Source of the DNA: a virus
DNA: 13,294 nucleotides
Direction: 5' to 3' (one strand)
UHGV virus genome: UHGV-0121640
Shown here: positions 2,058 to 13,294 of the stretch, in pieces
Position numbering within the stretch: the first letter of the stretch is position 1
Layout of the letters: each line of letters opens with the position of its first letter
Notes under the pieces: generated by a model
What the model saw: the letters and a program-made list of their open reading frames with translations, nothing else
Database searches by the model: none
What the model was told of the DNA's origin: nothing
Made by a program: the position numbers and the translations under genes

Positions 2058-2127
2058 CTATTTCTTTAATTGAGGGTATTATATTCCACGTTGATTAGTT
2101 GACATGGGCTAATCAGTAGGTGACAGG

Positions 2128-2982
2128 ATGTTACTTAACTGGCAGGGACGCCATTTCATGGAAATAAATCACTCACGAATAACATCGTACGAGATTGCGG
2201 ATTACATGATCCGCACTAAATCTCTTCTATCAGCGAAAGAACTCGCAGCAATTCTTGAAAAGGAATACCCGCATCTGGATGTCGATAAGCGCGATGTTTA
2301 TCTGCGCTTAAAGGCTATCGCTGTGTCTAAGTATTCGTCTGTTTTGATTGATGACAGTACGTGTATTCGCCTGGTGCAGGAAATGCGCGATCAGCAAAAA
2401 GACGATGATGAAGGTACTCCGCCTGAATACCGTATCGCGAGCATGCTAAACAGCTGTTCCGCGCAGATAAGCAGCCTGATCAACACCATTTACAGCATCC
2501 GGAATAACTATCGAAAAGAAAGCCGGGAGGCGGAAAAGCACGCTTTGTCTATGGGGCAAGCTGGCATTGTTAAGCTGGCATACGAACGAAAGCGTGAAAA
2601 TAACTGGTCAGTGCTGGAAGCAGCTGAATTCATCGAGGCGCATGGTGGGAAAGTTCCGCCCCTGATGCTGGAGCAAATCAAAGCCGATCTGCGTGCTCCT
2701 AAGACCAATACCGATGACGAGGAAAACCAAACAGCATCTGGCGCTCCATCCCTTGAAGATCTGGATAAAATCGCACGAGAACGGGCCGCCAGCCGCCGCG
2801 CTGATGCCGCATTGTGGATTGAGCATCGTAGAGAAGAAATTGCCGGTATCGTCGATACAGGTGGTTATGGTGATGTCGATGCGGAAGGCATATCAAACGA
2901 AGCATGGCTTGAACAGGAGCTGGACGAAGACGAGGAGGAAGACGAAGAAGTTACCCGCAAACTGTACGGGGATGATGATTAA
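2128..2982 (+). CDS. Hypothetical 284-aa protein with strongly acidic C-terminal tail (DEDEEEDEE); operator-controlled; possibly a late-gene activator (Lpa-like) or terminase small-subunit-like protein
   Basis: Long ORF with coding-like composition; no Walker A; no P1 pac-type TGATCA hexamer cluster inside. Function not assignable from sequence. Confidence 0.6.
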
Positions 2983-3934
2983 TGGCCAGAAGTTGCGTAA
3001 CCGCATCTTATTACTGTCACAGCCTACACGCCCAAGCGGCTATTTCTACGATACACACCATAAACTGGCCAAGCGTCCTGGTAACCCAGATGGCGTTTAT
3101 ACGGCGATCACGCTTAACAGTGAGGAATCACCGCTGGTAACGCCAGAATTTATCAAAATGAAGCTGGCGGAGTACGGCGGGCGTGATAACCCTATGTACA
3201 TGATTAAGGTACGCGGCCTATTCCCTAAATCACAGGACGGATTCCTTCTTGGACGTGATGAGGTTGAACGTGCGACGCGGCGGAAAGTCAAGATTGCCAA
3301 AGGATGGGGCTGGCTTGCATGTGTGGACGTTGCTGGTGGTACAGGACGGGATAAGTCCGTTATCAATATCATGATGGTGTCCGGCCAGCGAAATAAACGC
3401 CGTGTAATCAACTATCGAATGCTGGAATACACAGACGTTACAGAAACGCAGCTTGCCGCCAAAATTTTCGCAGAATGTAATCCTGAGCGATTCCCCAATA
3501 TCACCATAGCGATAGACGGCGATGGCCTGGGTAAAGCAACGGCGGATCTGATGTACGAGTATTATGGTATTACCGTACAGCGCATACGCTGGGGTAAAAA
3601 GATGCATAGCCGTGAAGATAAGAGCCTGTACTTTGATAAGCGTGCTTATGCCAATGTTCAAGCCGCAGAGGCCGTAAAATCTGGTCGTATGAGACTGGAT
3701 AAGGGTAATGAAACTATTGAGGAAGCGTCGAAAATCCCTGTAGGGATTAACTCCGCAGGTCAATGGCGGGTGATGACTAAGGAAGACATGAAGAAAAAGC
3801 TCAACCTGCACTCACCAGACCATTGGGATACATATTGTTTCGCTATGCTGGCGGATTATGTTCCCCAGGATGAGGTGCTAAGCGTCGAAGACGAAGCGCA
3901 GGTTGATGAAGCTCTGGCATGGCTTAATGAATAA
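2972..3934 (+). CDS. Terminase large subunit-like protein, C-terminal RNase H-fold nuclease half only (about 320 aa); no Walker A/B ATPase motifs; start uncertain (ATG 2972 or 2975)
   Basis: Motifs LLLSQP (ATPase motif III-like), [41 protein letters not shown] resemble acidic catalytic motifs of terminase nuclease domains. The upstream 2693-2971 extension in the track looks non-coding (overlaps 2128 ORF in another frame). Confidence 0.5.
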
Positions 3935-3937
3935 ATA

Positions 3938-3954
3938 CTTGCTCTAATAAATTG
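3938..3954 (+). promoter_or_regulatory. C1 operator-like site CTTGCTCTAATAAATTG (15/17), overlapping a possible promoter (-35 TTGTGA 3952-3957, -10 TACATT 3975-3980)
   Basis: Direct sequence match; position analogous to the operator controlling the immI promoter in P1 (recalled). Confidence 0.5.
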
Positions 3955-4085
3955 TGATTTTTGACTGCCGATGTTACATTGAACCTGACATCTTGCGCCT
4001 TGAGGCATTTTCGGTTTATGCTTATCAGGCACCTCATTAAAACGGGTGCCGGGATTGAGACCCCGGATAATGCAAAAGGCGACAC

Positions 4086-4109
4086 AGACGCCAAAAGCGT
4101 CTTTTTTTT
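4086..4109 (+). terminator. Rho-independent terminator: stem AGACGC / GCGTCT, loop CAAAA, followed by T8
   Basis: Hairpin plus U-run read directly at 4086-4109. Confidence 0.6.
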
Positions 4110-4159
4110 GTGTCATGCCATCGCACAGCCATACGTAGCGTTTAGCTCAGAGATCAATG

Positions 4160-4238
4160 GTAGTGCTGGCTGGGCTGCCGAAAGGCAGGCCGGTTCCCTT
4201 TTGCGCCGGTAGTCTCAACCCAGTCAGTGCTACCGCCA
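4160..4238 (+). ncRNA. Candidate c4-like antisense RNA: about 77-nt three-way-junction (tRNA-like) structure; boundaries approximate
   Basis: 13-bp closing stem 4162-4174 / 4219-4231 (3 G-U), internal hairpins CTGCC-GAAA-GGCAG (4175-4188) and 4190-4209, single-stranded GTCTCAA (4212-4218) complementary to TTGAGAC at 4055-4061 and 4241-4253; GGCAGGCC complementary with one bulge to GGCTGCC just after the downstream SD. By analogy to P1 c4 (RNase P-processed antisense RNA). Confidence 0.3.
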
Positions 4239-4294
4239 TTGAGATTGAGACCTCACGCGGTAGCTCCTTAAATTAGCAAAAGGAGGCTGCCATT

Positions 4295-4516
4295 GTGGCT
4301 ACTATCCCTACCCCTGCTCATCCTGAATTTATCTGGCGCTTTTACTCCTGCCAAAAACGTCACTATCACTTCGTTATTGCACCGACAGAAGATGAGGCAC
4401 GTTCTCAGCTTCCTGACGCCCCATGTATTTTCTCTGCCCGTTTTTCCACTGATTCACGCAATTCTCTCAGTTACTGGTGCCTCCCTGTTAACGCTTCTGC
4501 TCAGGAGGGACTATGA
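4295..4516 (+). CDS. 73-aa small protein, GTG start, translationally coupled to the antirepressor (ATGA overlap); icd-like position in an immI-type operon
   Basis: Strong SD AAAGGAGG (4279-4286) 8 nt before GTG 4295; stop TGA 4514-4516 overlaps ATG 4513. Size matches recalled P1 Icd (73 aa); sequence identity not verified. Confidence 0.5.
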   Translation: MATIPTPAHPEFIWRFYSCQKRHYHFVIAPTEDEARSQLPDAPCIFSARFSTDSRNSLSYWCLPVNASAQEGL

Positions 4517-5625
4517 GAACATCGTTAGTTACCCGTGAAGAGATGATCGAGGCAATTGAACAGCACACTGCCTGTATCAGTACCAGGGATATACCTGGCG
4601 TTATTGCCAACTACTTCATGATCACCAAACAACTTTACCGGAGAAAGGACAAACACGCGGTTCACCGCATTCTGCTAACCGATATCCGAGAATACCTGCT
4701 CGAACAGGGTCATCTGAATTACGCAACCGTCGCAGCCGAAGCACGCAAGGAGGCACACAGAATGAAAGCAACTAACGTTAAATCAGAAAAAATTTATGCA
4801 CCTTCAGTTCAGGAATCGGAACTGGTGGTTGTTCAGAATCAGCCGGATGAAATTCCCGTTCTGGAATGGCAGGGAGTACGTGTCGTGACAACCGAAACTC
4901 TTGCTAGAGGGTATGGGGTCGATGAAGCCAATATTCGCAACAATTTGTCTCGCAACCTTGACCGCTTTGAAGAAGGTAAGCATTACTTTCTTCTAACTGG
5001 TTTAAAATTAAGAGAATTTAAGAACAGAGTAACTGGAAGTTACTCTGTTGGTAAGAACGCCAGAAGCCTTACACTCTGGACAGAGCGCGGCGCTGCACGC
5101 ATGTCTAAGATCGTGGACACAAATGAAGCATGGGCATTCTTTGAAAAACTGGAAGACAGCTACTTCCGACAAAAAGAACAGCAACCGGTTGCAATCCCCC
5201 AAACATTACCAGAAGCCCTACGCCTGGCTGCCGAACTGGCTGAACAAAAGCAGCTTCTGGAACAGAAAGCCCACCAGCTAAATCAGCAGCTGGTGGCCGC
5301 CGCTCCTAAGGTCGATTTTGCCGACCGGGTATCAGTAGCTAAAGGGATCCTGATTGGGAATTTTGCAAAGGTTGTTGGACTTAAGCAAAACGCGCTGTTT
5401 GCCTGGTTACGGGAGAACGGCATCCTGATAGCGTCCGGTGGACGTAAAAATGTGCCGTTCCAGCAGTACATCAACGCGGGGTATTTCACGGTGAAAGAAG
5501 TGGTGCTGGATGATGAAAATGGCTACCAGATACGGCTGACGCCCCAATTAACGGGTAAAGGCCAGCAGTGGTTGACGCGTAAACTGCTCGATGCTGGCTT
5601 GTTAAAACCGGTGGCGGCTGAATAA
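4513..5625 (+). CDS. ant: Phage antirepressor, N-terminal ORF6N-type and C-terminal KilAC-type domains (370 aa); nested in-frame internal start at 4762 (287 aa) with its own SD, Ant1/Ant2-like
   Basis: ORF6N-like stretch LEWQGVRVVTTETLARGYGVDEANIRNNLSRNLDRFEEGKHYFLLTGLKLREF; KilAC-like stretch VSVAKGILIGNFAKVVGLKQNALFAWLRENGIL...QQYINAGYF; SD AAGGAGG (4747-4753) before ATG 4762. Sizes fit recalled P1 Ant1/Ant2 (42/32 kDa). Confidence 0.75.
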   Translation: MRTSLVTREEMIEAIEQHTACISTRDIPGVIANYFMITKQLYRRKDKHAVHRILLTDIREYLLEQGHLNYATVAAEARKEAHRMKATNVKSEKIYAPSVQESELVVVQNQPDEIPVLEWQGVRVVTTETLARGYGVDEANIRNNLSRNLDRFEEGKHYFLLTGLKLREFKNRVTGSYSVGKNARSLTLWTERGAARMSKIVDTNEAWAFFEKLEDSYFRQKEQQPVAIPQTLPEALRLAAELAEQKQLLEQKAHQLNQQLVAAAPKVDFADRVSVAKGILIGNFAKVVGLKQNALFAWLRENGILIASGGRKNVPFQQYINAGYFTVKEVVLDDENGYQIRLTPQLTGKGQQWLTRKLLDAGLLKPVAAE

Positions 5626-5632
5626 TGGAAGA

Positions 5633-5654
5633 ATGCCCGGTTGATGCCGGGCAT
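5633..5654. terminator. Hairpin ATGCCCGG-ttgatg-CCGGGCAT between convergent ant and c1 3' ends; possible bidirectional terminator
   Basis: 8-bp perfect stem read directly; flanks only moderately T-rich on both strands. Confidence 0.4.
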
Positions 5655-5657
5655 AAT

Positions 5658-6509
5658 TTATTGCGCGCTTTCGGGGTTGTCGTTTACTGGCTGCCCCTTC
5701 TTGGTTTTACGGCTGCGCGTAACTGATGCGGCTGACTTAACCTTTTTCTCTTCGCGAGTGATGGCAATTTGTTTTTTTACATTTTCAATATCTGCCAGGC
5801 GATATATTTTTGCTTGCGGCCAGCGGTCGCAGATGATCGGTTCTATGGAGTCATAAAGGCTAAATTTTGCTTTTTCGAATTCACCGTTGATGATAATTCC
5901 ATCACGGAGAGTTTCATCGCAGATAAACACGCCACACAGTGGCACATGGTAACTCACTGATTTACCATCATTGTAGTTAGGGCTACTGGAAATGTAGTGG
6001 ACGCGCAGCATTGTTTCGCTAAAGCCGTGTACGCGCATACGGAATTTTTCATCCTCCGGGTACTGCTTCATTAGCTCTTTTGTTGCTTCCAGGTTCTCTA
6101 TGTATTTCGCACTGTGCTCATTGATCCCCGCGCTTTTCTGGATGCGAATGTCCTTATCAATCAGATGAATAATGCGGCCAGCGGTCATGTTGACGCTGTT
6201 CACAGCTTCTGTCTGATAAGTCGTAACCTTACGCACACCGCGAAGGATGTTAGGCACTGGATATAAAATAGTCTTTGGGATATTGAGGTCTGGGTACTGT
6301 TCCAGTTCCCGCGCCATTAAAGTCCATTTATCAATTTCAGCCTGAATGCTGTCAGTTTCTTTGAACGGTAGAACGACAACCGGGCGTACAGGACGACCGT
6401 CGCTGGCTGTATCAACGTGTTGGGCGCGTGCAACAGCTTTTTTTAGAAAGAGATCCCTGAAGCTGACGAACTCCTGGTACAGTTGTTCGCCGTAGACATA
6501 ATTTATCAT
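5658..6509 (-). CDS. c1: C1 repressor of lysis (primary immunity repressor, immC), 283 aa
   Basis: Translation MINYVYGEQLYQEFVSFRDLFLKKAVARAQHVD...NDNPESAQ matches P1 C1 as recalled; strong SD (GGAGGAGG on minus strand) 5 nt before ATG. Confidence 0.93.
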   Translation of the reverse strand: MINYVYGEQLYQEFVSFRDLFLKKAVARAQHVDTASDGRPVRPVVVLPFKETDSIQAEIDKWTLMARELEQYPDLNIPKTILYPVPNILRGVRKVTTYQTEAVNSVNMTAGRIIHLIDKDIRIQKSAGINEHSAKYIENLEATKELMKQYPEDEKFRMRVHGFSETMLRVHYISSSPNYNDGKSVSYHVPLCGVFICDETLRDGIIINGEFEKAKFSLYDSIEPIICDRWPQAKIYRLADIENVKKQIAITREEKKVKSAASVTRSRKTKKGQPVNDNPESAQ

Positions 6510-6602
6510 TGATCCTCCTCCAGAATTGACATGGTCAATAACGCCCGGCTGAGAAAACCGGTCATTACTGACCTATATTATAGAGAGATCAAACAAAAAT
6601 AA

Positions 6603-6619
6603 TAGATTTATTAGTGCAT
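6603..6619 (-). promoter_or_regulatory. Degenerate C1 operator-like site between coi and c1 (minus strand ATGCACTAATAAATCTA; 9-bp core CTAATAAAT intact)
   Basis: Partial match to operator consensus with one-base deletion in the left half. Confidence 0.25.
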
Positions 6620-6829
6620 TTATTGTGAGTCTAACTGGTTAGTTGCCATGAGATATTCGATTGTGTCAGTGAGGTCATCCAGGTCGTCTTGGGTGATGCG
6701 GTACTCCTGATTGGATATCTTTGAGTAGTGTTCAGCAATGGCGCGGGCAGCGTCGGTTTCGGCAGGGTCTACAGATAAAGCGTTAGAGCAATGTCTAACG
6801 TCGTCGATGGTTGGTTGAATGAAAGCCAT
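6620..6829 (-). CDS. coi: Coi, C1 inactivator, 69 aa
   Basis: 69-aa acidic ORF immediately upstream of c1 on the same strand, as in P1 immC; size matches recalled Coi. Confidence 0.8.
   Translation of the reverse strand: MAFIQPTIDDVRHCSNALSVDPAETDAARAIAEHYSKISNQEYRITQDDLDDLTDTIEYLMATNQLDSQ
6776..6792 (-). promoter_or_regulatory. C1 operator-like half-match inside coi coding sequence (minus strand ATTGCTCTAACGCTTTA; first 10 bp perfect)
   Basis: Direct sequence match of left half only. Confidence 0.25.
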
Positions 6830-7066
6830 AATTATGCCTCACTGTATTGACAACACAGAGCCTGAAGCTCTGACCTACTGTTTCACCCATGATCCATGCT
6901 GGGGTAATCTAACAACATTGCGCTGTGTGTAAGATGAGCAATGCATAGCTGTAATGCCGTTGTATAAGGTTTCCCTGTTTGCTCATTTCCTTCTGAGCCG
7001 CTCTACAACGCTGAAGACACATTAAATAGTGAATCCAAAGTCGTATTACGTAACGGCGGCAAAACT
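6830..7066 (-). other. Leader region upstream of coi; expected location of the tiny imcB/imcA ORFs by P1 synteny (not resolved here)
   Basis: Synteny recall only; a 31-codon minus-strand ORF starting at 6890 overlaps the coi start but I cannot confirm it. Confidence 0.2.
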
Positions 7067-7067
7067 A

Positions 7068-7084
7068 TAATTTATTAGAGCAAT
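7068..7084 (-). promoter_or_regulatory. C1 operator (minus strand ATTGCTCTAATAAATTA; 16/17)
   Basis: Near-perfect consensus match; divergent with the 7151 copy, flanking about 65 bp; consistent with the Op99 cluster of P1. Confidence 0.6.
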
Positions 7085-7150
7085 TGTCAAACAACTATGA
7101 AAAACAATCCAGTTTTTTGCTGGTGGAGTGGGATTTTTCTCTCAAAATTT

Positions 7151-7167
7151 ATTGCTCTAATAATTCT
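7151..7167 (+). promoter_or_regulatory. C1 operator (ATTGCTCTAATAATTCT; 15/17)
   Basis: Direct consensus match. Confidence 0.55.
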
Positions 7168-7210
7168 TGATTTTTATATGCAGCTGGACGTAAACTCCTC
7201 TTCAGACCTA

Positions 7211-7244
7211 ATAACTTCGTATAGCATACATTATACGAAGTTAT
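7211..7244. other. loxP: loxP site: ATAACTTCGTATA-GCATACAT-TATACGAAGTTAT (13-bp inverted repeats, 8-bp spacer)
   Basis: Exact 34-bp canonical loxP read directly. Confidence 0.98.
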
Positions 7245-7315
7245 CTTAAGGGTTATTGAACATGATCAATTTACCTGTAAATCCATACAGTTCAATGCCT
7301 TATCAGGTCAAATAG

Positions 7316-7337
7316 TGATCACTTGATCATTTGATCA
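7316..7337. promoter_or_regulatory. Three TGATCA hexamers at exact 8-bp phase (7316, 7324, 7332), with a fourth at 7263: Dam-site cluster in the cre upstream region
   Basis: Read directly; methylation-sensitive cre promoters are described for P1. Confidence 0.5.
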
Positions 7338-7342
7338 AGGTT

Positions 7343-7401
7343 GCGCTACGTAAAATCTGCGAAATGTTGGCAGTGTTAGTGCTCCAGATTTCGCGTAGCG
7401 C
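7343..7401. repeat. 17-bp imperfect inverted repeat GCGCTACGTAAAATCTG ... CAGATTTCGCGTAGCGC (15 Watson-Crick + 1 G-T over 17) separated by 25 bp
   Basis: Pairing checked base by base; lies 35 bp upstream of the 7435 ORF. Confidence 0.55.
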
Positions 7402-7434
7402 ACTTAGCACCACCTAATCAATCAGAGGTGAAAA

Positions 7435-7656
7435 ATGGGATATTCAGCTGCTAAAGTGTCCACTCATCTTGAGCTTGAGAAAAACCGTGGTTACTGGCGG
7501 GCAAAAGGGTTTGATCGTGATAGTTGTCAACTGTCATTATCGCGCGGTGAAGAGAAAATAGAACGCACGCGCGGTCGCTGGCGTTTCTATGACGAGAACC
7601 ATAAACAGGTAAAGGCAGAGCCGATCCTGTACACTTTACTTAAAACCATTATCTGA
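7435..7656 (+). CDS. Hypothetical 73-aa basic protein between loxP and cre; stop 8 nt before cre ATG
   Basis: SD GAGGTG 4 nt upstream of ATG; ORF fills the loxP-cre gap. I cannot tell whether it is expressed. Confidence 0.35.
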   Translation: MGYSAAKVSTHLELEKNRGYWRAKGFDRDSCQLSLSRGEEKIERTRGRWRFYDENHKQVKAEPILYTLLKTII

Positions 7657-7663
7657 GTGTTAA

Positions 7664-8695
7664 ATGTCCAATTTACTGACCGTACACCAAAATTTGCCTG
7701 CATTACCGGTCGATGCAACGAGTGATGAGGTTCGCAAGAACCTGATGGACATGTTCAGGGATCGCCAGGCGTTTTCTGAGCATACCTGGAAAATGCTTCT
7801 GTCCGTTTGCCGATCGTGGGCGGCATGGTGCAAGTTGAATAACCGGAAATGGTTTCCCGCAGAACCTGAAGATGTTCGCGATTATCTTCTATATCTTCAG
7901 GCGCGCGGTCTGGCAGTAAAAACTATCCAGCAACATTTGGGCCAGCTAAACATGCTTCATCGTCGGTCCGGGCTGCCACGACCAAGTGACAGTAATGCTG
8001 TTTCACTGGTCATGCGACGGATCCGAAAAGAAAACGTTGATGCCGGTGAACGTGCAAAACAGGCACTGGCGTTCGAACGCACTGATTTCGACCAGGTTCG
8101 TTCACTCATGGAAAATAGCGATCGCTGCCAGGATATACGTAATCTGGCATTTCTTGGGATTGCTTATAATACCCTGCTACGTATAGCAGAAATTGCCAGG
8201 ATCAGGGTTAAAGATATCTCACGTACTGACGGTGGGAGAATGTTAATCCATATTGGCAGAACGAAAACGCTGGTTAGCACCGCTGGTGTAGAGAAGGCAC
8301 TTAGCCTGGGGGTAACTAAACTGGTTGAGCGATGGATTTCTGTCTCTGGTGTGGCTGATGATCCGAATAACTACTTGTTTTGCCGTGTCAGAAAAAATGG
8401 TGTTGCCGCGCCATCTGCCACCAGCCAGCTATCAACTCGCGCCCTGGAAGGGATTTTTGAAGCAACTCATCGATTGATTTACGGCGCTAAGGATGACTCT
8501 GGTCAGAGATACCTGGCCTGGTCTGGACACAGTGCCCGTGTCGGAGCCGCGCGAGATATGGCCCGCGCCGGAGTTTCAATACCGGAGATCATGCAAGCTG
8601 GTGGCTGGACCAACGTAAATATTGTCATGAACTATATCCGTAACCTGGATAGTGAAACGGGGGCAATGGTGCGCCTGCTGGAAGATGGCGATTAG
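7664..8695 (+). CDS. cre: Cre tyrosine recombinase, 343 aa
   Basis: Translation MSNLLTVHQNLPALPVDATSDEVRKNLMDMFRDRQAFSEHTWKMLLSVCRSWAAWCKLNNRKWFPAEPEDVRDYLLYLQARGLAVKTIQ... ends ...MVRLLEDGD; canonical Cre as recalled. Confidence 0.97.
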   Translation: MSNLLTVHQNLPALPVDATSDEVRKNLMDMFRDRQAFSEHTWKMLLSVCRSWAAWCKLNNRKWFPAEPEDVRDYLLYLQARGLAVKTIQQHLGQLNMLHRRSGLPRPSDSNAVSLVMRRIRKENVDAGERAKQALAFERTDFDQVRSLMENSDRCQDIRNLAFLGIAYNTLLRIAEIARIRVKDISRTDGGRMLIHIGRTKTLVSTAGVEKALSLGVTKLVERWISVSGVADDPNNYLFCRVRKNGVAAPSATSQLSTRALEGIFEATHRLIYGAKDDSGQRYLAWSGHSARVGAARDMARAGVSIPEIMQAGGWTNVNIVMNYIRNLDSETGAMVRLLEDGD

Positions 8696-8712
8696 CCGTT
8701 CATTTGCGCTTG

Positions 8713-8729
8713 ATTGCTCTAATTATTTG
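8713..8729 (+). promoter_or_regulatory. C1 operator-like site ATTGCTCTAATTATTTG (14/17) directly downstream of cre
   Basis: Direct consensus match. Confidence 0.45.
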
Positions 8730-8745
8730 ATATTTATGGTGACGC

Positions 8746-9057
8746 ATGCGGAAGGATTTCAAAATAGACGGAAAATATGTGGTGCTGTCTGTAAGCTCTC
8801 AAATTCAGTCACCATCTGTCATTGTCACCGTAAAGTTGAGCGATAGGATGCCTGATATCGACTCGATATCTGTTGCGTTCCCCGTTAAAAGCATGCGGAG
8901 TGCTGAACATTTTGTGATGAATGCAACGGAGGAGGAAGCGCGGCGCGGGCTTACTAGAGTGATGGTGGAATTTGGCGAACTCCTGGGTAAGGTAAACAAT
9001 GCCCTTTCAATCAGTTCAGCAAGATCCAAAGCGTTAACAGCTTCCATGATGAAATAA
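8746..9057 (+). CDS. Hypothetical 103-aa protein downstream of cre (cra-like position); true start may be an internal Met
   Basis: ORF in track; weak SD at the 8746 start; operator immediately upstream. Confidence 0.35.
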   Translation: MRKDFKIDGKYVVLSVSSQIQSPSVIVTVKLSDRMPDIDSISVAFPVKSMRSAEHFVMNATEEEARRGLTRVMVEFGELLGKVNNALSISSARSKALTASMMK

Positions 9058-9062
9058 AAAAA

Positions 9063-9081
9063 GCCTGGCAAGGAGCCAGGC
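9063..9081 (-). terminator. Hairpin GCCTGGC-aagga-GCCAGGC preceded on the plus strand by an A-run, i.e. oriented as an intrinsic terminator for minus-strand transcription
   Basis: 7-bp perfect stem; the U-run exists only on the minus strand. Confidence 0.35.
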
Positions 9082-9188
9082 TGCACAAAAGAGCGGGTTT
9101 GTATTCCGCATCCAATCAATCAAGAAGGAGTATAGCACACAGGTACTGAAGTGAAAAAATGTGATTCGCGATTAACAAAATATCTACC

Positions 9189-9218
9189 ATTGCTCTAATT
9201 GATTGCTATAATTAAGCC
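9189..9218 (+). promoter_or_regulatory. Tandem overlapping C1 operator-like sites ATTGCTCTAATTGATTG (14/17) and ATTGCTATAATTAAGCC (12/17) upstream of ref
   Basis: Direct match; ref is a C1-repressed gene in P1 (recalled). Confidence 0.55.
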
Positions 9219-9272
9219 GCAGTTTTTGTCAACTACGAAGACGTTGCCATTACTTAACTCCTTGACATCATT

Positions 9273-9300
9273 GGCGGCCATTAGGCCGCCTTTTTTTTTT
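9273..9300 (+). terminator. Strong intrinsic terminator GGCGGCC-atta-GGCCGCC + T10, ending 5 nt before the ref ATG
   Basis: Hairpin and U-run read directly. Confidence 0.6.
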
Positions 9301-9305
9301 GCCAT

Positions 9306-9866
9306 ATGAAAACAATCGAACAAAAACTTGAACAGCGCCGCGAGTGGCAGAAGGCAGCCAGAGAACGAGCGATCGCTCGGCAACGGGAAAAGTTGGCTGA
9401 CCCCGCCTGGCGAGAATCGCAATATCAGAAAATGCGGGATTCTATCGTCCGCCGTATCGCTAAACAGAAAGAGCGCCCACCAGCCAGCAAAACGCGGAAA
9501 AGTGCGGTAAAGATAAAATCTCGTGGCTTGAAGGGGCGAACATCGACAGCGGAGGAACGGAGCATCGCCAATGCTCTTGGCGCTCTCCCCTGCATTGCCT
9601 GCTACATGCATGGAGTAATATCTGAAGAGGTATCTCTGCACCATATCTCCGGTCGTACCGCGCCGGGTTGTCACAAAAAGCAATTGCCCCTTTGTAGATG
9701 GCACCACCAGCATGCAGCACCGGCTGAAGTAAGAGAAAAATACCCCTGGCTGGTCCCTGTTCATGCCGATGGTGTGGTTGGAGGCAAGAAAGAATTCACC
9801 TTGCTGAACAAGTCAGAGATGGAGTTGCTGGCTGACGCCTATGAGATGGCAAACATCATGCACTAA
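9306..9866 (+). CDS. ref: Ref, recombination enhancement function (HNH-type endonuclease), 186 aa
   Basis: Translation MKTIEQKLEQRREWQKAARERAIARQREKL... with C-terminal Cys/His cluster (CIACYMHG...HHISGRT...CHKKQLPLCRWHHQH) typical of HNH; matches P1 Ref as recalled. Confidence 0.88.
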   Translation: MKTIEQKLEQRREWQKAARERAIARQREKLADPAWRESQYQKMRDSIVRRIAKQKERPPASKTRKSAVKIKSRGLKGRTSTAEERSIANALGALPCIACYMHGVISEEVSLHHISGRTAPGCHKKQLPLCRWHHQHAAPAEVREKYPWLVPVHADGVVGGKKEFTLLNKSEMELLADAYEMANIMH

Positions 9867-10017
9867 TAAATATATTATTTTTAATCTGAAATAATTGACA
9901 ACTGACAAGTGACTTCAGTCAGAATCATCACATGCCCGGTACGGATGGATCCCTTTTCAAATATTCCATGGACGGCACAGTCTGAGTACCGGGCGCTACC
10001 TTCAGTTGTATTGCTAA

Positions 10018-10043
10018 GCCGCCGCTGGTGGCTTTTCTTTTTT
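10018..10043 (+). terminator. Hairpin (8 bp incl. one G-U, 3-nt loop) followed by TTTTCTTTTTT, upstream of the mat-like start
   Basis: Read directly; lies inside the 9909-start ORF extension, arguing for the shorter start. Confidence 0.4.
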
Positions 10044-10055
10044 GTAGGGGGCGCT

Positions 10056-10697
10056 ATGGATAAGAAAATATGCGTTGTTTCGATGAGCGTCGGCAAACCG
10101 GCGTCAATGACTGCTGCATGGATCAACAATGAGCTAATAATGGCTGAGCGGACCAGCTACCCTGAACGCCGTCGCGATATGGAACTCCAGCTGCTGCGCG
10201 AATTGCGAGAAAAAGAGGAAAAGGGTTTTATCGTGCTGGTGGAAGAGGAAAACAGCTTTATTACTGGTCGAGTTGGCCAGCGTGTAAGGTTGCGCGATCC
10301 CTTCATGAACGGCAGGCCGGTACTAATTGAGGCAATGCAGATTTATAAGGAGCTGGAACGCCAGAAAGCAATCAAGTTACCGCGCAAGGAATCCGGCAAA
10401 TACATCCTCCACCAAAGCATCTTCGATTCCGAACACGACAAAAAAGGCGATGAATTTTTCAACATCAACTGGAGCGAAATAACGACAGAGCATGTTCTGA
10501 CGTTACTATGTTGCTTTGCGACGGAATACAACAACGTTGCCAGCGCAGACTACATCAGGGCAATGGCTGGAGAAGTTGAGGCACGCCAGGAACCATCGTT
10601 ACTAAGCCCTCTGATTAACATAATTCGCGGAACCCAAACGCTGGCACAAAAACAGGTGCCTAAGGGAGTATTAACAGGAAAAGGAAATTATCTATAA
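10056..10697 (+). CDS. Hypothetical 213-aa protein in the position of P1 mat (particle maturation); track start 9909 (GTG) probably too far upstream
   Basis: ATG 10056 has SD AGGGGG 5 nt upstream; N-terminal extension from 9909 is hydrophobic and low-complexity and contains a terminator-like hairpin. Confidence 0.5.
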   Translation: MDKKICVVSMSVGKPASMTAAWINNELIMAERTSYPERRRDMELQLLRELREKEEKGFIVLVEEENSFITGRVGQRVRLRDPFMNGRPVLIEAMQIYKELERQKAIKLPRKESGKYILHQSIFDSEHDKKGDEFFNINWSEITTEHVLTLLCCFATEYNNVASADYIRAMAGEVEARQEPSLLSPLINIIRGTQTLAQKQVPKGVLTGKGNYL

Positions 10698-10753
10698 ACG
10701 TCAATGCATTAGGGTATACTTCTCCGTAGAACTATAAGTAAATGGAGTAAGTA

Positions 10754-12058
10754 ATGAGCGAGTATATAGAAATTGCCTATGCAGCAGCTACACATAGGCT
10801 GTGCTTTCTTACAGGCACTGGATTTTCAAAGGCTGTTTCTGATGATAAAGCCCCAAGTTGGCAATCTTTATTGGAGCAACTGTGCGGTTTATTGAAGGAT
10901 GGTGACTCACTCAAAGAGGAATTATTTCCTGATGGAAAAGCAAAAGACCTTAGCCTTGAAGAGGCTGCTCAGGTTATTGCACTAAAATTTATACTTTCGG
11001 GGAAAAATATTTACCAGGAGATTGAGAAAATCATAGCCTCAATCGAACTTGATCCATCAATTGAATATATTCAAGACTTTTTCAAAGAAAACACATTTAA
11101 AGTAATTACGACAAATTATGACAAGTTAGCAGAAAAACTGGCTGGAGAGAATCGAACGTGTACAATCACCCCCGGCCTGCCAATTCCAAAATATAATTGT
11201 GAGGTTAAAGTCTACCATGTTCACGGCTCTATAGACTCCCCATCAGATATGGTTGTTACTAGCGAGGATTATTTCAGATTTATAAATGGTAATTCTTACT
11301 TTTCAAATAAACTAAGCACAGTTCTACATGAAAACACTATTGTTATTCTTGGCTATTCTCTAAGTGACGCGAACCTCAAGGCGATTATAAATGAATATAA
11401 GGTATTTTCACGGGACAACGTAATGTCCTCCAATATTTTCCTTATTTCCCGAGGGAAACTATTGCAACCTATTAAAGATTACTATTTTTCCTGCTTTGGG
11501 ATTAGGGTTATAGATAAAACAGAGGTGTCTGATTTCTTTAGAAAACTTAACAAGAAAATTCCAGAAGCAAAAAAAATAAAAGACAAATTGAGGCACTCAA
11601 TCAAATCGGTAATAAAAAACGGAAGAGAGTATAAAATAGAGTTCTTGAAGTTAGAGGATTCTTTTTATCATATCATTTCCTCCATTTCATCATCTGGATA
11701 TAGCTGGAATGATGAAAAGGTATTAAATGTTTTTTGTGATATAATAGATAAAAAAATAGATCTTACTAAAGAGTCTGGCGCATGGGAGCAGTATGAACAC
11801 CTGGCAAAATGGCTTATTTATTTCGGTAGTTTATTTGAAGTAAAAGGAACCAACTTTGAGAAAAAATACATACATGCGGTTGAACACTCAATGACTTATA
11901 TGAATAAACCTTACGAAACAGGCTACTCATGGCGAGCATATCTAGCCTGGAAAACAAAATGGCCTTCACTGACAGCATCTAACCGCTCTCTTATTAAGAG
12001 TAAGATGGAAGAAATCCCGCTACAACAGATTCACGATATTATATCTAAGTTTATATAG
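10754..12058 (+). CDS. SIR2-family (sirtuin-like, DHS-like NAD-binding fold) protein, 434 aa: N-terminal predicted NADase domain + unassigned C-terminal domain of about 180 aa; candidate defense effector
   Basis: Motif series FLTGTGFS, TTNYDKLAEK, YHVHGS, VILGYSLSDANL in the order and spacing seen in ThsA/DSR-type SIR2 domains; SD GGAG 7 nt before ATG; gene visibly AT-rich versus flanks. Confidence 0.8.
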   Translation: MSEYIEIAYAAATHRLCFLTGTGFSKAVSDDKAPSWQSLLEQLCGLLKDGDSLKEELFPDGKAKDLSLEEAAQVIALKFILSGKNIYQEIEKIIASIELDPSIEYIQDFFKENTFKVITTNYDKLAEKLAGENRTCTITPGLPIPKYNCEVKVYHVHGSIDSPSDMVVTSEDYFRFINGNSYFSNKLSTVLHENTIVILGYSLSDANLKAIINEYKVFSRDNVMSSNIFLISRGKLLQPIKDYYFSCFGIRVIDKTEVSDFFRKLNKKIPEAKKIKDKLRHSIKSVIKNGREYKIEFLKLEDSFYHIISSISSSGYSWNDEKVLNVFCDIIDKKIDLTKESGAWEQYEHLAKWLIYFGSLFEVKGTNFEKKYIHAVEHSMTYMNKPYETGYSWRAYLAWKTKWPSLTASNRSLIKSKMEEIPLQQIHDIISKFI

Positions 12059-12066
12059 TATATTTA

Positions 12067-12095
12067 TCTCCGGCCTAATCTCCCTAGGCCGGAGA
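12067..12095. terminator. Hairpin TCTCCGGCC-taatctcccta-GGCCGGAGA between convergent SIR2-like gene and lxc-like gene; possible bidirectional terminator
   Basis: 9-bp perfect stem read directly; downstream TTCTT on the plus strand. Confidence 0.45.
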
Positions 12096-12099
12096 GTTC

Positions 12100-12348
12100 T
12101 TAATCAGCATTCAGGAGCAATGCGTTATCTATGATGATCTGCTCCCATTCCTCGAATGCCCGATCGCGGACGCCCTGGGGAACGCTGTTAGTTTTGAAAT
12201 CGACGACCGTCCGCCATTTTCCGTCCGGACGGTACATGCGCAGAGCTTTACTTCCCCCTTCCCTGCGCACCTCAACGTTATGCTTGTCAGCAAACTCTTG
12301 TAATGCTCGTAGCGTCCCATGCTTTACTGTGTAGTATCGCTTTTTCAA
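12100..12348 (-). CDS. 82-aa protein, TTG start overlapping upstream stop (TTGA); lxc/bof-like position (C1 corepressor) by synteny
   Basis: ORF in track; size and position match recalled P1 lxc (bof); sequence identity not verified. Confidence 0.45.
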   Translation of the reverse strand: MKKRYYTVKHGTLRALQEFADKHNVEVRREGGSKALRMYRPDGKWRTVVDFKTNSVPQGVRDRAFEEWEQIIIDNALLLNAD

Positions 12349-12785
12349 GTTTTCTCTCCAGCCTGTGCTAAGGCTTCAACTTCCAAATCGTAAGACTCAA
12401 ACTCATAGTCCTGGTCGTCAACCTCTTCAGGCACTGGCAGTAAATGCCAGGCTGAGTATATCTGACCATTATCAAAACGCTCCTGGCTGTAGAGCGTCGC
12501 GGCTATGAGTGTTAGCGCCGGGCGGTCATAACGGTAAATTTTGCGAACGTCACGGTCAACGAGACGACCGAAATTACCATAACCGCGCTCCAGTAATAAT
12601 TTTTTAATTTCCGGCCAGTATGGACCATAGCTGCGGTACAGGCGGGGATTTTTCAGTAATCGCCCGCGTAGCCCTGACAGGAAGAAATCAACGTATTCGT
12701 CTTCTGTCTTTCCTAACAACGCTGTACGGAGTACCGCCTCAAGATATGTTTTATTCGGTTTTATTGTATCAGATAGTGTGGCCAT
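12345..12785 (-). CDS. Hypothetical 146-aa protein; ulx-like position upstream of the lxc-like gene
   Basis: ORF in track with coding-like composition; synteny only. Confidence 0.45.
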   Translation of the reverse strand: MATLSDTIKPNKTYLEAVLRTALLGKTEDEYVDFFLSGLRGRLLKNPRLYRSYGPYWPEIKKLLLERGYGNFGRLVDRDVRKIYRYDRPALTLIAATLYSQERFDNGQIYSAWHLLPVPEEVDDQDYEFESYDLEVEALAQAGEKT

Positions 12786-12818
12786 ATTATGCGACGCCCG
12801 GCGAACCGGGCGCTCCTG

Positions 12819-13253
12819 TTATGCGTATTGTTGGATGACGGCCAGAACGTCCGCCACGTTGTGTTTTGTCTCGATAATCCACCAGTTACCCGGGAAATCG
12901 CTGTTCTTCGCCTTCGCTGGCAGCCAGCGAGCGCCGAATTTCGCCTTGATTGCGTCTTTCGCACGGAAAAGAACGCCTTTCATGCCTGAGGCTTCCTGAA
13001 GCCCAAATACCTCGCCAGCGGCGAATTTTGGTGCGTACATCATCTTCAGGTCGGCGGTGGATACGCGATAATTCAGACCAAGAGACTGAGCTATGCTGGT
13101 GGCATCACCCTGTATTGATGATAACTCTTCTTGTTTCTCGTTTCTGGCGGCAATCTCTTCCTCCGTGATGTTGCCAAGGGCCAGGTTTATCCGATCAGCG
13201 TCGGCCTGTTTCTCTTCATCGGTGCGCCCGGCAAGAACCGGTGATGCTGCCAA
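12819..13253 (-). CDS. Hypothetical 144-aa protein, TTG start; function unknown
   Basis: ORF in track; in-frame stop 3 codons upstream of the TTG so not a longer gene; no family recognised. Confidence 0.35.
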   Translation of the reverse strand: MAASPVLAGRTDEEKQADADRINLALGNITEEEIAARNEKQEELSSIQGDATSIAQSLGLNYRVSTADLKMMYAPKFAAGEVFGLQEASGMKGVLFRAKDAIKAKFGARWLPAKAKNSDFPGNWWIIETKHNVADVLAVIQQYA

Positions 13254-13294
13254 CTTACTGATTTAGTGTATGATGGTGTTTTTGAGGTGCTCCA

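Follow-up and report, generated by a model that had tools for sequence, protein, structure and literature searches.

The mat-lxc interval of P1-like phage-plasmids is a cargo-exchange hotspot and carries a candidate single-protein SIR2 defence gene

P1-like phage-plasmids spread between strains in viral as well as in plasmid form, carrying resistance genes along. Their backbone is present in 703 plasmid records of PLSDB and is common in E. coli and Salmonella. In the virus genome UHGV-0121640, a stretch of 13,294 nt (the window) was analysed, in which an AT-rich island follows the gene mat. What does this island encode, and how did it come to lie at this place in the backbone? A first-pass annotation, made from the letters alone, had described it as a foreign, defence-type gene in a swappable cargo site.

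The island (positions 10,698-12,099; Table 1) is set apart by its base composition. Its GC content is 0.358, whereas all other 1402-nt stretches of the window range from 0.424 to 0.509, so the marked AT-richness noticed at first is real. The same is seen at the level of single genes: the coding sequence of the island gene has a GC content of 0.354 and a GC3 of 0.33, compared to 0.483 for mat, 0.526 for ref, 0.506 for lxc, 0.474 for ulx and 0.532 for the part of darB present, with a GC3 of 0.46-0.57 in these flanking genes. The island fills exactly the space between the mat and lxc stop codons. Among ORFs of 50 aa or more, a single one spans it and encodes a protein of 434 aa; the only other ORF listed in the island (54 aa, minus strand) is nested inside it. 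As the first-pass annotation stated, this plus-strand gene is alone and convergent with the minus-strand pair lxc and ulx. The hairpin reported ahead of lxc was confirmed by folding (-20.8 kcal/mol, z = -5.0), as none of 200 shuffled sequences folded as well. It is a probable bidirectional terminator and probably marks the right end of the cassette. An Rfam search over 9200-13,294 at E up to 1 gave no match within the island; the sole match in that range was a sub-threshold one to suhB/mmgR at 9239-9306.

Table 1. Features of the island and its flanks (positions in the window)
Feature	Position	Strand	Remarks
mat-like gene (maturation control)	9909..10697	+	aligns with P1 mat through P1 3468
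Candidate sigma-70-like promoter TTAACA-N16-TATAAA, outward-facing	10671..10698	+	low confidence; spotted by eye; overlaps mat stop
mat stop codon TAA	10695-10697	+	left cargo boundary; mat is the conserved left anchor
Leader of the SIR2 cassette, 56 nt	10698..10753	+	without a strong terminator hairpin after mat
SIR2 gene, 434 aa	10754..12058	+
SIR2 (SIR2_2) domain, residues 1-255, predicted NAD+ glycohydrolase	10754..11518	+	Pfam PF13289
C-terminal all-helical alpha-solenoid, residues 256-434, plus stop codon	11519..12058	+
GC-rich 11-bp stem-loop between convergent SIR2 and lxc	12067..12095	.	fold and shuffle test
lxc (modulator of C1 repressor), conserved right anchor	12100..12348	-	98% identical to P1 9750-9998
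lxc stop codon (TTA on + strand)	12100-12102		right cargo boundary
ulx (Ulx-like anti-restriction protein), conserved right flank	12345..12785	-

Alignment with P1 (NC_005856) located the breakpoints. To the left, homology extends from 7228 to 10,697 (P1 1-3468) and stops at the end of mat; it restarts at the lxc stop (12,100-13,240, equal to P1 9750-10,890). The backbone is P1-like on both sides of the island, as had been proposed. In P1, positions 3469-9749 are taken up by res, mod and an IS5; all three are on the minus strand, the orientation also given for res and mod in the first-pass annotation. Both genes are missing from the window, and a compositionally foreign single gene lies in exactly their place, in line with the first description. 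The P1 gene order given there (cre, cra, ref, mat) has to be corrected: the record reads cra, cre, c8, ref, mat, res, mod, lxc, ulx, darB. The island gene has no homologue in P1, where one at this position would have refuted the first description, nor among INPHARED phage records. P1's own res/mod cargo is equally AT-rich (GC 0.39). Therefore, low GC is a trait of the slot cargo generally and not of this island alone.

The slot was surveyed in 73 P1-like loci having both flanks, and the cargo classes were named by Pfam and PADLOC. Ten loci are empty and retain only a hairpin in 35-43 nt. The occupied slots hold at least 11 cassette classes, unrelated in sequence and all with a GC content of 0.33-0.43. 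SIR2a, the allele of the present sequence, was found in 13 further loci, and SIR2b, with 58% amino-acid identity to it, in three. The other cargos are GNAT (10 loci), type III restriction-modification (R-M; 9 loci), CapRel (8 loci), PIN_12 (5 loci), a YaaC-like and nucleoside-deoxyribosyltransferase-like pair (4 loci) and, in three loci each, a second RelA/SpoT allele, a DUF2971 cargo (PADLOC candidate PDC-S31), an EAL and AraC-type regulator pair and a JukA-containing cassette. As in the hotspots of P2 and P4, the 73 loci have many unrelated cassettes at a fixed position with conserved neighbours. The mat-lxc interval is a hotspot for the exchange of cargo in P1-like phage-plasmids, with either one self-contained, AT-rich cassette of 0.9-5 kb or a hairpin only; the empty allele and the diversity of cassettes substantiate the idea of a swappable site. 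The SIR2a allele is present in 64 of the 703 P1-like plasmids of PLSDB and in 69 of 5426 complete E. coli genomes, and SIR2b in about 58 further P1-like PLSDB plasmids.

Among the cargos, type III R-M (EcoP1I), which P1 itself carries, and CapRelSJ46 (PMC9712102) are validated defence systems. The CapRel-class protein matches PDB 7ZTB, i.e., CapRelSJ46 (E = 1.6e-250), and in Salmonella phage SJ46 the CapRel gene sits between mat and lxc. The SJ46 locus resembles the present island in its slot, its single AT-rich plus-strand gene and its own terminator hairpin. CapRelSJ46 is an experimentally validated anti-phage system, an abortive-infection sensor-effector fusion (PMC9712102). The proteins are unrelated, as CapRelSJ46 joins a toxSAS tRNA pyrophosphokinase to an antitoxin-like sensor and has no SIR2 domain. 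The JukA, PDC-S31, PDC-S34-like and SIR2 cargos are defence homologues or candidates only, and the GNAT, YaaC-like/deoxyribosyltransferase-like and EAL/AraC cargos are not obviously defensive. The label 'defense-type' given to the island gene is correct at the level of its domain, SIR2_2; for the whole protein, a defence function is predicted, and the label does not extend to every occupant of the slot.

The SIR2_2 match of the 434-aa protein is strong (PF13289; E = 1.6e-23, 83.8 bits against a gathering cut-off of 24.5), and Pfam gave no other significant family. The same domain serves as the NADase of ThsA, DSR1/2, SIR2-HerA and KomC. Residues G21-T22-G23, N121, D123, H155 and H157 are invariant among 40 homologues, and H157 aligns with H171 of DSR2. 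The domain is modelled by AF2 with a pLDDT of about 90, and its best Foldseek matches are DSR2, ThsA and KomC (E = 1e-10 to 1e-8). The C-terminal 175-aa alpha-solenoid, presumed to be a sensor or oligomerisation domain, is confined to the family of about 434 aa. Indeed, a profile search of 1.84 billion representatives retrieved almost only SIR2-length proteins or fragments; this gave no sign of modular reuse, and shuffling of the domain onto other effectors was rejected. Its mean column identity is 0.73, compared to 0.79 for the catalytic domain. Such conservation is unusual for an arms-race sensor and could reflect a conserved ligand or a purely structural role.

DSR2 of Bacillus subtilis is among the closest known systems. 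It, too, is a single protein, in which a SIR2 NADase forms the N-terminal part and an alpha-helical solenoid comes next. Foldseek ranks it first (E = 8.5e-11), and both proteins have the catalytic Asn and His. The DSR2 solenoid senses a phage tail-tube protein, after which NAD+ is depleted (PMC11263360, PMC11850899). Nevertheless, DSR2 has about 1000-1200 aa with a MID and a long HEAT-like CTD, in contrast to 434 aa with a 175-aa solenoid, and the sequences are unrelated beyond the SIR2 core. The most likely role of the 434-aa protein is that of a sensor which acts alone and aborts infection by depleting NAD. It would be held inactive in the lysogen until its solenoid detected a cue of infection. 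This cue would most plausibly be a phage protein, like the tail tube that the much longer solenoid of DSR2 detects. The cue would induce oligomerisation-dependent NAD+ hydrolysis by the SIR2 domain, and the loss of NAD+ would abort the infection. The NADase activity, the trigger and the abortive-infection phenotype are what we infer for this protein. More generally, the slot occupants would mostly be defence or defence-candidate genes guarding the lysogen against other phages; the plasmid would be protected together with the lysogen. A swap site served by homologous recombination and loaded here with such a sensor is the best explanation of the locus, and one we hold with moderate confidence.

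The expression of the gene allows another role to be considered. The protein would then act during the development of the phage-plasmid itself, in its lytic programme or in superinfection exclusion, e.g., by draining NAD+ to shut down the host or competitors, rather than as a sensor kept ready in the lysogen. The SIR2 gene lies 56 nt downstream of mat in the same orientation, and its cassette lacks the post-mat hairpin of most other cassettes. No terminator was found between the two genes, and a promoter consensus scan found none ahead of the SIR2 gene. With neither an own consensus promoter nor a terminator after mat, the gene may be co-transcribed with mat. In P1, mat carries a C1 operator and a late promoter; such C1-repressed, late transcription may be odd for a gene active in the lysogen and would suit a lytic role. 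However, the scan accepts only -10 hexamers with a T in the sixth position and passed over TTAACA-N16-TATAAA, a weak, possible promoter overlapping the mat end. In the leader, ACTTCTCC and the GGAG Shine-Dalgarno form a weak stem, and the fold (-10.4 kcal/mol, z = -0.2) is no better than that of shuffled sequences. Moreover, a constitutive late NADase would hurt P1's own replication, the slot occupants EcoP1I R-M and CapRelSJ46 (PMC9712102) defend the lysogen against incoming phages, and homologues are found outside phages in chromosomal contexts resembling defence islands. A lytic role is considered unlikely.

The databases point to a second alternative, namely that the gene is not an immune gene at all. 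RefSeq/PGAP names the protein 'SIR2 family NAD-dependent protein deacylase', and it might be a deacylase, an ADP-ribosyltransferase or a metabolic 'moron' tuning host physiology or plasmid maintenance. The presence of GNAT and EAL/AraC cargos, which are not known as defence genes, in the same slot would be compatible with this. In PHROGs, the entry (phrog_7567) is of 'unknown function'. No defence phenotype is known for the family, and no paper was found on it, its phage resistance or NAD+ cleavage. Nonetheless, RefSeq applies this name generically, at the family level. The canonical sirtuin deacylase profile (CobB/Sir2, PF02146) gave no match at E up to 1, and the 434-aa sequence has no CxxC pairs, i.e., no Cys4 zinc module; SIR2_2 is its sole significant Pfam family. 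The closest relatives in sequence and structure (ThsA, DSR2, KomC, LmuA-SIR2) are all defensive NADases. Homologues with 55-61% identity occur in Vibrio, Halomonas, Marinobacter, Paracidovorax and E. coli; some adjoin restriction or defence genes (HsdR, GmrSD or HNH), and the one in E. coli is part of a lambdoid prophage, at its integrase end. Taken together, a non-immune function seems quite improbable.

A defensive NADase is the preferred reading, and the protein was compared with the named SIR2 systems (ThsA, DSR1/2, SIR2-HerA, LmuA, KomC and PDC-S25). None was retained, the likeness being limited to the SIR2 core in each case. The protein scores 30.6 bits with NCBIfam Dsr2 and 21.2 bits with Dsr1 (about 1260 aa), which against a cut-off of 1400 for both places it outside these families. 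Thoeris ThsA is similar in the sequence (PADLOC ThsA, E = 7e-18; PDB 7uxt, 6lhx) and fold of its SIR2 domain, but it has a SLOG/STALD (or Macro) ligand-binding domain that the island protein lacks. Neither the island nor five homologue neighbourhoods contain a gene for the TIR protein ThsB. As for SIR2-HerA, no HerA (DUF87) gene is present in the island; just a single locus, in Halomonas, has a DUF87 gene, 2.6 kb from the homologue, and this gene is not conserved. The partners found in the short-pAgo system SPARSA (pAgo, beside SIR2-APAZ), Lamassu (the SMC-like LmuB, beside LmuA-SIR2) and Kongming (KomA/KomB) are likewise missing from this single-gene cassette, and the likeness to LmuA and KomC is restricted to the SIR2 domain. 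In fact, the five homologue neighbourhoods have no conserved neighbour or partner gene in common. The best PADLOC match is PDC-S25 (83 bits, E = 5e-24), a single-gene SIR2-containing defence candidate. The alignment covers only positions 127-283 of the 517-position profile, the SIR2 core (profiles have 517-528 positions). As the C-terminal part of the profile is unmatched, the island protein is probably not a full-length PDC-S25 member.

The comparison of alleles also gives hints on how cassettes are exchanged. The slot flanks are 97-99% identical across loci whichever cargo is present. Divergence linked to the cargo is limited to the final 30-130 nt or so of mat, with the last 118-132 nt replaced in two classes, and the exact base of the cassette junctions varies from class to class. 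Beside the lxc stop, a comparable hairpin of its own is found in the empty allele and in most of the alleles with a cargo. No transposase or integrase ORF is listed at the island, no tRNA was found there, and no direct or inverted repeats or target-site duplication bracket it; only short chance repeats are present. Transposition or integration was rejected as the main mechanism for these reasons. With near-identical flanks and no such elements, the identity pattern suggests that cassettes are probably swapped by homologous recombination in the flanks. Many independent insertions of discrete mobile elements (transposon, integron-like or site-specific) into an empty site would account for an empty allele retaining just a hairpin and for the hairpin of one empty allele (L057) being exactly that of the second RelA/SpoT class, as if an insertion or deletion had occurred just upstream of it, but this is very unlikely given the absence of bracketing transposase, integrase, terminal inverted repeats and target-site duplication, the class-specific junctions with loss of the mat end, and the SIR2a and SIR2b alleles, whose leaders are 98% identical and whose coding sequences are about 60-65% identical in nucleotides, a mosaic typical of homologous recombination.

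Exchange at a fixed site is known from other temperate elements. The hotspots of P2-like and P4-like prophage/satellite elements hold many interchangeable defence systems, most of them small and some with SIR2-domain genes (Rousset et al. 2022, PMC9122126). The mat-lxc slot resembles them in its fixed site amid conserved genes and in exchange among relatives; it differs in the element, a P1-like phage-plasmid, and in the anchors, mat and lxc. That the 'res-mod region' of P1-like elements is variable and low in G+C was published earlier (PMC9603915; PMC11165635). In the literature found, the site is described as a 'res-mod variable region' only, never as a defence hotspot, and an earlier account in Gilcrease and Casjens (2018, PMC5800970) is conceivable. 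The new part is modest and consists of the anatomy of the hotspot and the SIR2 family. The family lies outside the coverage of DefensePredictor (PMC13092281) and of Vassallo et al. (PMC9519451), and a DefenseFinder survey of P1/D6 elements reports no SIR2 system (bioRxiv 10.1101/2025.09.12.675607). A bolder proposal is put forward tentatively: the 434-aa family might be uncharacterised, compact single-protein NADase immune sensors, with a strongly conserved, tryptophan-rich C-terminus that responds to a new sort of cue, possibly a conserved ligand instead of a variable phage protein, and mat-lxc might serve as a discovery platform like the P2/P4 hotspots, with GNAT, the YaaC-like pair, DUF2971 and PIN_12 as new anti-phage systems.

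About one in six P1-like plasmids carries SIR2a or SIR2b, which are missing from DefenseFinder-based surveys of such elements. A sharply bounded slot in which defence genes are shuffled would make P1-like elements vectors of phage resistance, which bears on phage therapy and on the competition between mobile elements. If confirmed, the 434-aa protein would be a tractable minimal model for the activation of SIR2 NADases, and the remaining unexplained cassettes of the slot would be ready candidates for new defence systems.

Homology to P1 (NC_005856) stops at the mat stop codon and resumes at the lxc stop codon, and the replacement of res/mod by the island (10698-12099) is therefore exact and intergenic, as both edges coincide with stop codons and the two flanking genes are convergent. 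The surrounding backbone is P1-like and of IncY type (phd/doc, lpa, pacAB, c1, cra, cre, c8, ref, mat, lxc, ulx, darB). Between the two homology blocks, P1 carries 6281 nt that comprise an IS5 and the minus-strand genes res and mod. As the first-pass annotation had claimed, res and mod are absent and a foreign gene stands in their place: the alignment breaks at 10697 and resumes at 12100, and no homologue of the island gene was found in P1 or among the records of the INPHARED phage collection. The P1 gene order given there was slightly off, as cra precedes cre and c8 had been left out.

The AT-rich, single-gene island itself was confirmed. In the sliding profile, GC falls from about 0.46-0.53 to 0.31-0.39 over 10650-12150; the island has a GC of 0.358 versus 0.424-0.509 in all remaining 1402-nt stretches. 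GC3 is 0.33 in the island gene versus 0.46-0.57 in cre, ref, mat, lxc and ulx. The hairpin proposed beside lxc reaches -20.8 kcal/mol on the plus strand and -22.2 on the minus strand (z about -5). A second AT-rich dip (6900-7400, GC 0.34-0.38), between c1/coi, lox and cra, represents the control region of the P1 backbone and is not cargo.

Features of the window, of the SIR2 protein and of the mat-lxc interval in P1-like loci
Feature	Position or length	Strand	Loci or basis
Left homology block	7228-10697		P1 1-3468; ends at mat stop codon
Right homology block	12100-13240		P1 9750-10890; starts at lxc stop codon
SIR2 ORF, 434 aa, fills island	10754..12058	+	ORF listing
Hairpin, 11 perfect base pairs	12067-12095	both	fold, shuffle test
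lxc	12100..12348	-	convergent with SIR2 ORF
ulx	12345..12785	-	convergent with SIR2 ORF
Rossmann-type SIR2 domain	residues 1-255		AlphaFold2 model
Long helix	residues 258-289		AlphaFold2 model
All-helical C-terminal domain	C-terminal part		AlphaFold2 model
Empty interval, terminator-like hairpin only	35-43 nt		10 loci
SIR2a (97-100% nt identity)	1402 nt		13 loci + window
SIR2b (vs SIR2a: 58% aa, about 60-65% nt identity)	1410-1417 nt		3 loci
GNAT acetyltransferase	872-892 nt		10 loci
Type III res/mod	5082-6281 nt		9 loci
RelA/SpoT protein, CapRel class	1271 nt		8 loci
Second RelA/SpoT allele	1268 nt		3 loci
PIN_12 protein	1046-1056 nt	-	5 loci
YaaC-like + nucleoside-deoxyribosyltransferase-like pair	1698 nt		4 loci
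DUF2971 protein (PADLOC candidate PDC-S31)	1308 nt	-	3 loci
EAL + AraC-type regulator pair	1877-1907 nt		3 loci
JukA homologue + HTH + other genes	3562-3569 nt		3 loci

A swappable defence cargo slot, as the annotation had interpreted the island, is supported by a survey of the mat-lxc interval. Eighty P1-like loci were fetched from IMG/VR with the Mat protein, and the end of mat and lxc were located in each. Both anchors were present in 73 loci, counting the P1 reference and one identical PLSDB plasmid; their intervals were clustered, and representative proteins were annotated by Pfam and PADLOC. An empty allele and at least 11 cargo classes were obtained, the window's allele being SIR2a and a diverged one SIR2b. 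GC lies at 0.33-0.43 in every cargo, P1's own res/mod included (0.39). The CapRel-class protein is essentially identical to PDB 7ZTB (E = 1.6e-250), i.e., CapRelSJ46 (bioRxiv 10.64898/2026.04.06.716658), a fused toxin-antitoxin with experimentally proven anti-phage action (PMC9712102), whose gene is placed between mat and lxc in the annotation of phage SJ46. In PLSDB, 703 plasmid records contain the mat-lxc backbone, SIR2a being present in 64 and SIR2b in about 58 more. Rows sampled across these records again showed GNAT, RelA/SpoT, PIN, DUF2971 and empty alleles, with further alleles in E. albertii. SIR2a was also found in 69 of 5426 complete E. coli genomes, where the replicons that carry it are nearly all plasmids in the range of about 95-100 kb.

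Several occupants have no known defence role or are candidates only: the YaaC-like and nucleoside 2-deoxyribosyltransferase-like proteins (locus L017, 7109-8658), a 202-aa GNAT (L009, 3651-4259), the EAL phosphodiesterase with its AraC-type regulator (L037, 10846-12522), the DUF2971 protein (L033, 1714-2754) and the PIN_12 protein (L030, 10822-11772). Their location in the slot makes them candidates for new functions in phage defence or lysogenic conversion. In L059, L068 and L069, the interval measures about 3.56 kb; besides a clear homologue of JukA (PADLOC E = 3e-66), it contains genes for an HTH protein and a protein of 372 aa, and small ORFs.

The island was found to lack ORFs for a transposase or integrase, a tRNA, and repeats, direct or inverted, that would bracket it. 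The slot flanks are 97-99% identical regardless of cargo, and a cargo-specific drop in identity is confined to the final ~30-130 nt of mat, with a slight one in the first 100 nt of lxc. Cargos of the DUF2971 and EAL classes come with their own version of the terminal 118-132 nt of mat. Most cassettes end with their own GC-rich hairpin beside the lxc stop, and that of the empty allele L057 exactly equals the hairpin of the second RelA/SpoT cassette. The two SIR2 alleles form a recombinational mosaic in their sequences, as a 56-nt leader (window 10698-10753; L012, a SIR2b locus, 10790-10845) is 98% identical while the coding regions share about 60-65%. The simplest reading of this pattern is that P1-like elements residing in the same cell would exchange cargo alleles when their conserved flanks undergo homologous recombination.

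Residues 117-245 of the island protein match Pfam SIR2_2 (E = 1.6e-23); its PHROGs entry is phrog_7567, function unknown. Its family is a tight one, with lengths of about 431-445 aa, 55-61% identity over full length and members in Vibrio, Halomonas, Xenorhabdus, Klebsiella, Pantoea, Pseudomonas, Marinobacter, Paracidovorax and chromosomal E. coli. Across 40 aligned sequences, G21-T22-G23, N121, D123, H155 and H157 are invariant, and H157 aligns with H171 of DSR2, the residue mutated in catalytically dead DSR2 structures. The closest solved structures by sequence are ThsA (7uxt, 6lhx, 8bto), DSR2 and KomC; in the AlphaFold2 model (pLDDT 85, pTM 0.83), Foldseek matches to DSR2, ThsA and KomC run through the SIR2 domain.

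Membership in DSR1/DSR2, Thoeris, SIR2-HerA, SPARSA, Lamassu and Kongming was rejected. The best PADLOC matches are the candidate PDC-S25, in the SIR2 core only, and the SIR2 parts of ThsA, LmuA and Dsr2. DSR1/DSR2 fail on length and on the full-length models (Dsr2 30.6 bits, Dsr1 21.2 bits; NCBIfam cut-offs 1400). Unlike in Thoeris, the protein lacks a SLOG domain and the island a ThsB gene, and the partner genes of SIR2-HerA, SPARSA, Lamassu and Kongming are absent. Among the homologue loci compared, including Halomonas, Marinobacter, V. cholerae and E. coli, no common partner gene was found: the neighbours include HNH, HsdR-like and DUF87 genes in Halomonas, HsdR and GmrSD in Marinobacter (where the element also carries DUF932 and YqaJ genes) and GmrSD in V. 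cholerae. In the E. coli chromosomes L084-L087, a 56%-identical homologue (8001-9311) directly follows the integrase that marks one end of a lambdoid prophage, adjoining the ccm/nap region; the family is therefore also terminal cargo of an unrelated temperate phage.

The analysis establishes how the protein is built, which catalytic residues it has and in which genomic contexts it occurs; its activity, trigger and phenotype are inferred. Most likely it brings about abortive infection on its own, and it would work most like a miniature DSR2. It would be latent in the lysogen and sense an infection cue via its solenoid domain; the SIR2 domain would then hydrolyse NAD+, probably via oligomerisation as in DSR2 and ThsA, and NAD+ depletion would halt phage replication. 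Two points call for caution. A sensor of variable phage proteins would not usually have a C-terminal domain as highly conserved as this one. The second point concerns expression: promoter scan and folding revealed no consensus promoter or terminator between mat and the SIR2 gene, which may therefore depend on read-through from the C1-controlled and late promoters of mat; a weak TTAACA-N16-TATAAA that overlaps the stop codon of mat is no more than a candidate promoter. In the conserved leader, the anti-Shine-Dalgarno ACTTCTCC can pair with the GGAG Shine-Dalgarno at -10.4 kcal/mol, not better than shuffles. The leader may slow the translation of a toxic gene, or it may simply be a recombination breakpoint.

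Elsewhere in the window, 2100-3940 shows two deletions with 3-4 nt junction overlaps relative to the intact relative NZ_CP023961. The first (875 nt) has taken out lpa's 3' half together with the 5' part of pacA and probably pac, and the second (528 nt) runs from the end of pacA through the start of pacB. ORF 2128..2982 retains the Lpa N-terminus alone (Pfam BPP1_LPA positions 1-67 of 131). In all best-matching PLSDB relatives, 2100-3300 aligns in three pieces over about 2610 nt, and the deletions therefore look private to this element. The element is probably defective in late gene activation and packaging, i.e., a P1-like plasmid and no longer a phage. An IS1 left end starts at 13240 (GGTGATGCTGCCAACTTACTGAT...) and breaks the anti-restriction gene darB about 420 nt before its 3' end; the window stops inside IS1. 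Between pacB and c1, a 1.7-kb module (3935-5643) carries genes for an Icd-like protein and for an antirepressor of 370 aa with ORF6N and KilAC/ANT domains (4513..5625). NZ_CP023961 lacks this module, about 308 PLSDB P1-like plasmids have it at the same position, and the site is therefore another variable one of the backbone.

The highly variable low-G+C res-mod region, one of eight such regions in P1-like elements (PMC9603915; PMC11165635), has already been published, as have CapRelSJ46 and the defence systems of these elements. DefenseFinder identified type III R-M, dGTPase, PrrC and CapRel in P1-like elements, and that survey reported no SIR2 system (bioRxiv 10.1101/2025.09.12.675607). In the literature covered, no paper was found that presents the mat-lxc interval, built as it is here, as a hotspot of defence genes, and none on the 431-445-aa SIR2 family. 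In its behaviour the locus resembles the defence hotspots of P2 and P4 (PMC9122126). The finding adds a new member to known kinds, namely prophage defence hotspots and SIR2 effectors, here with predicted NADase activity and a family-specific putative sensor domain. A specialist would not be surprised; the gain is a sharply defined hotspot with several testable candidate systems, and a SIR2 protein present on about every sixth P1-like plasmid.
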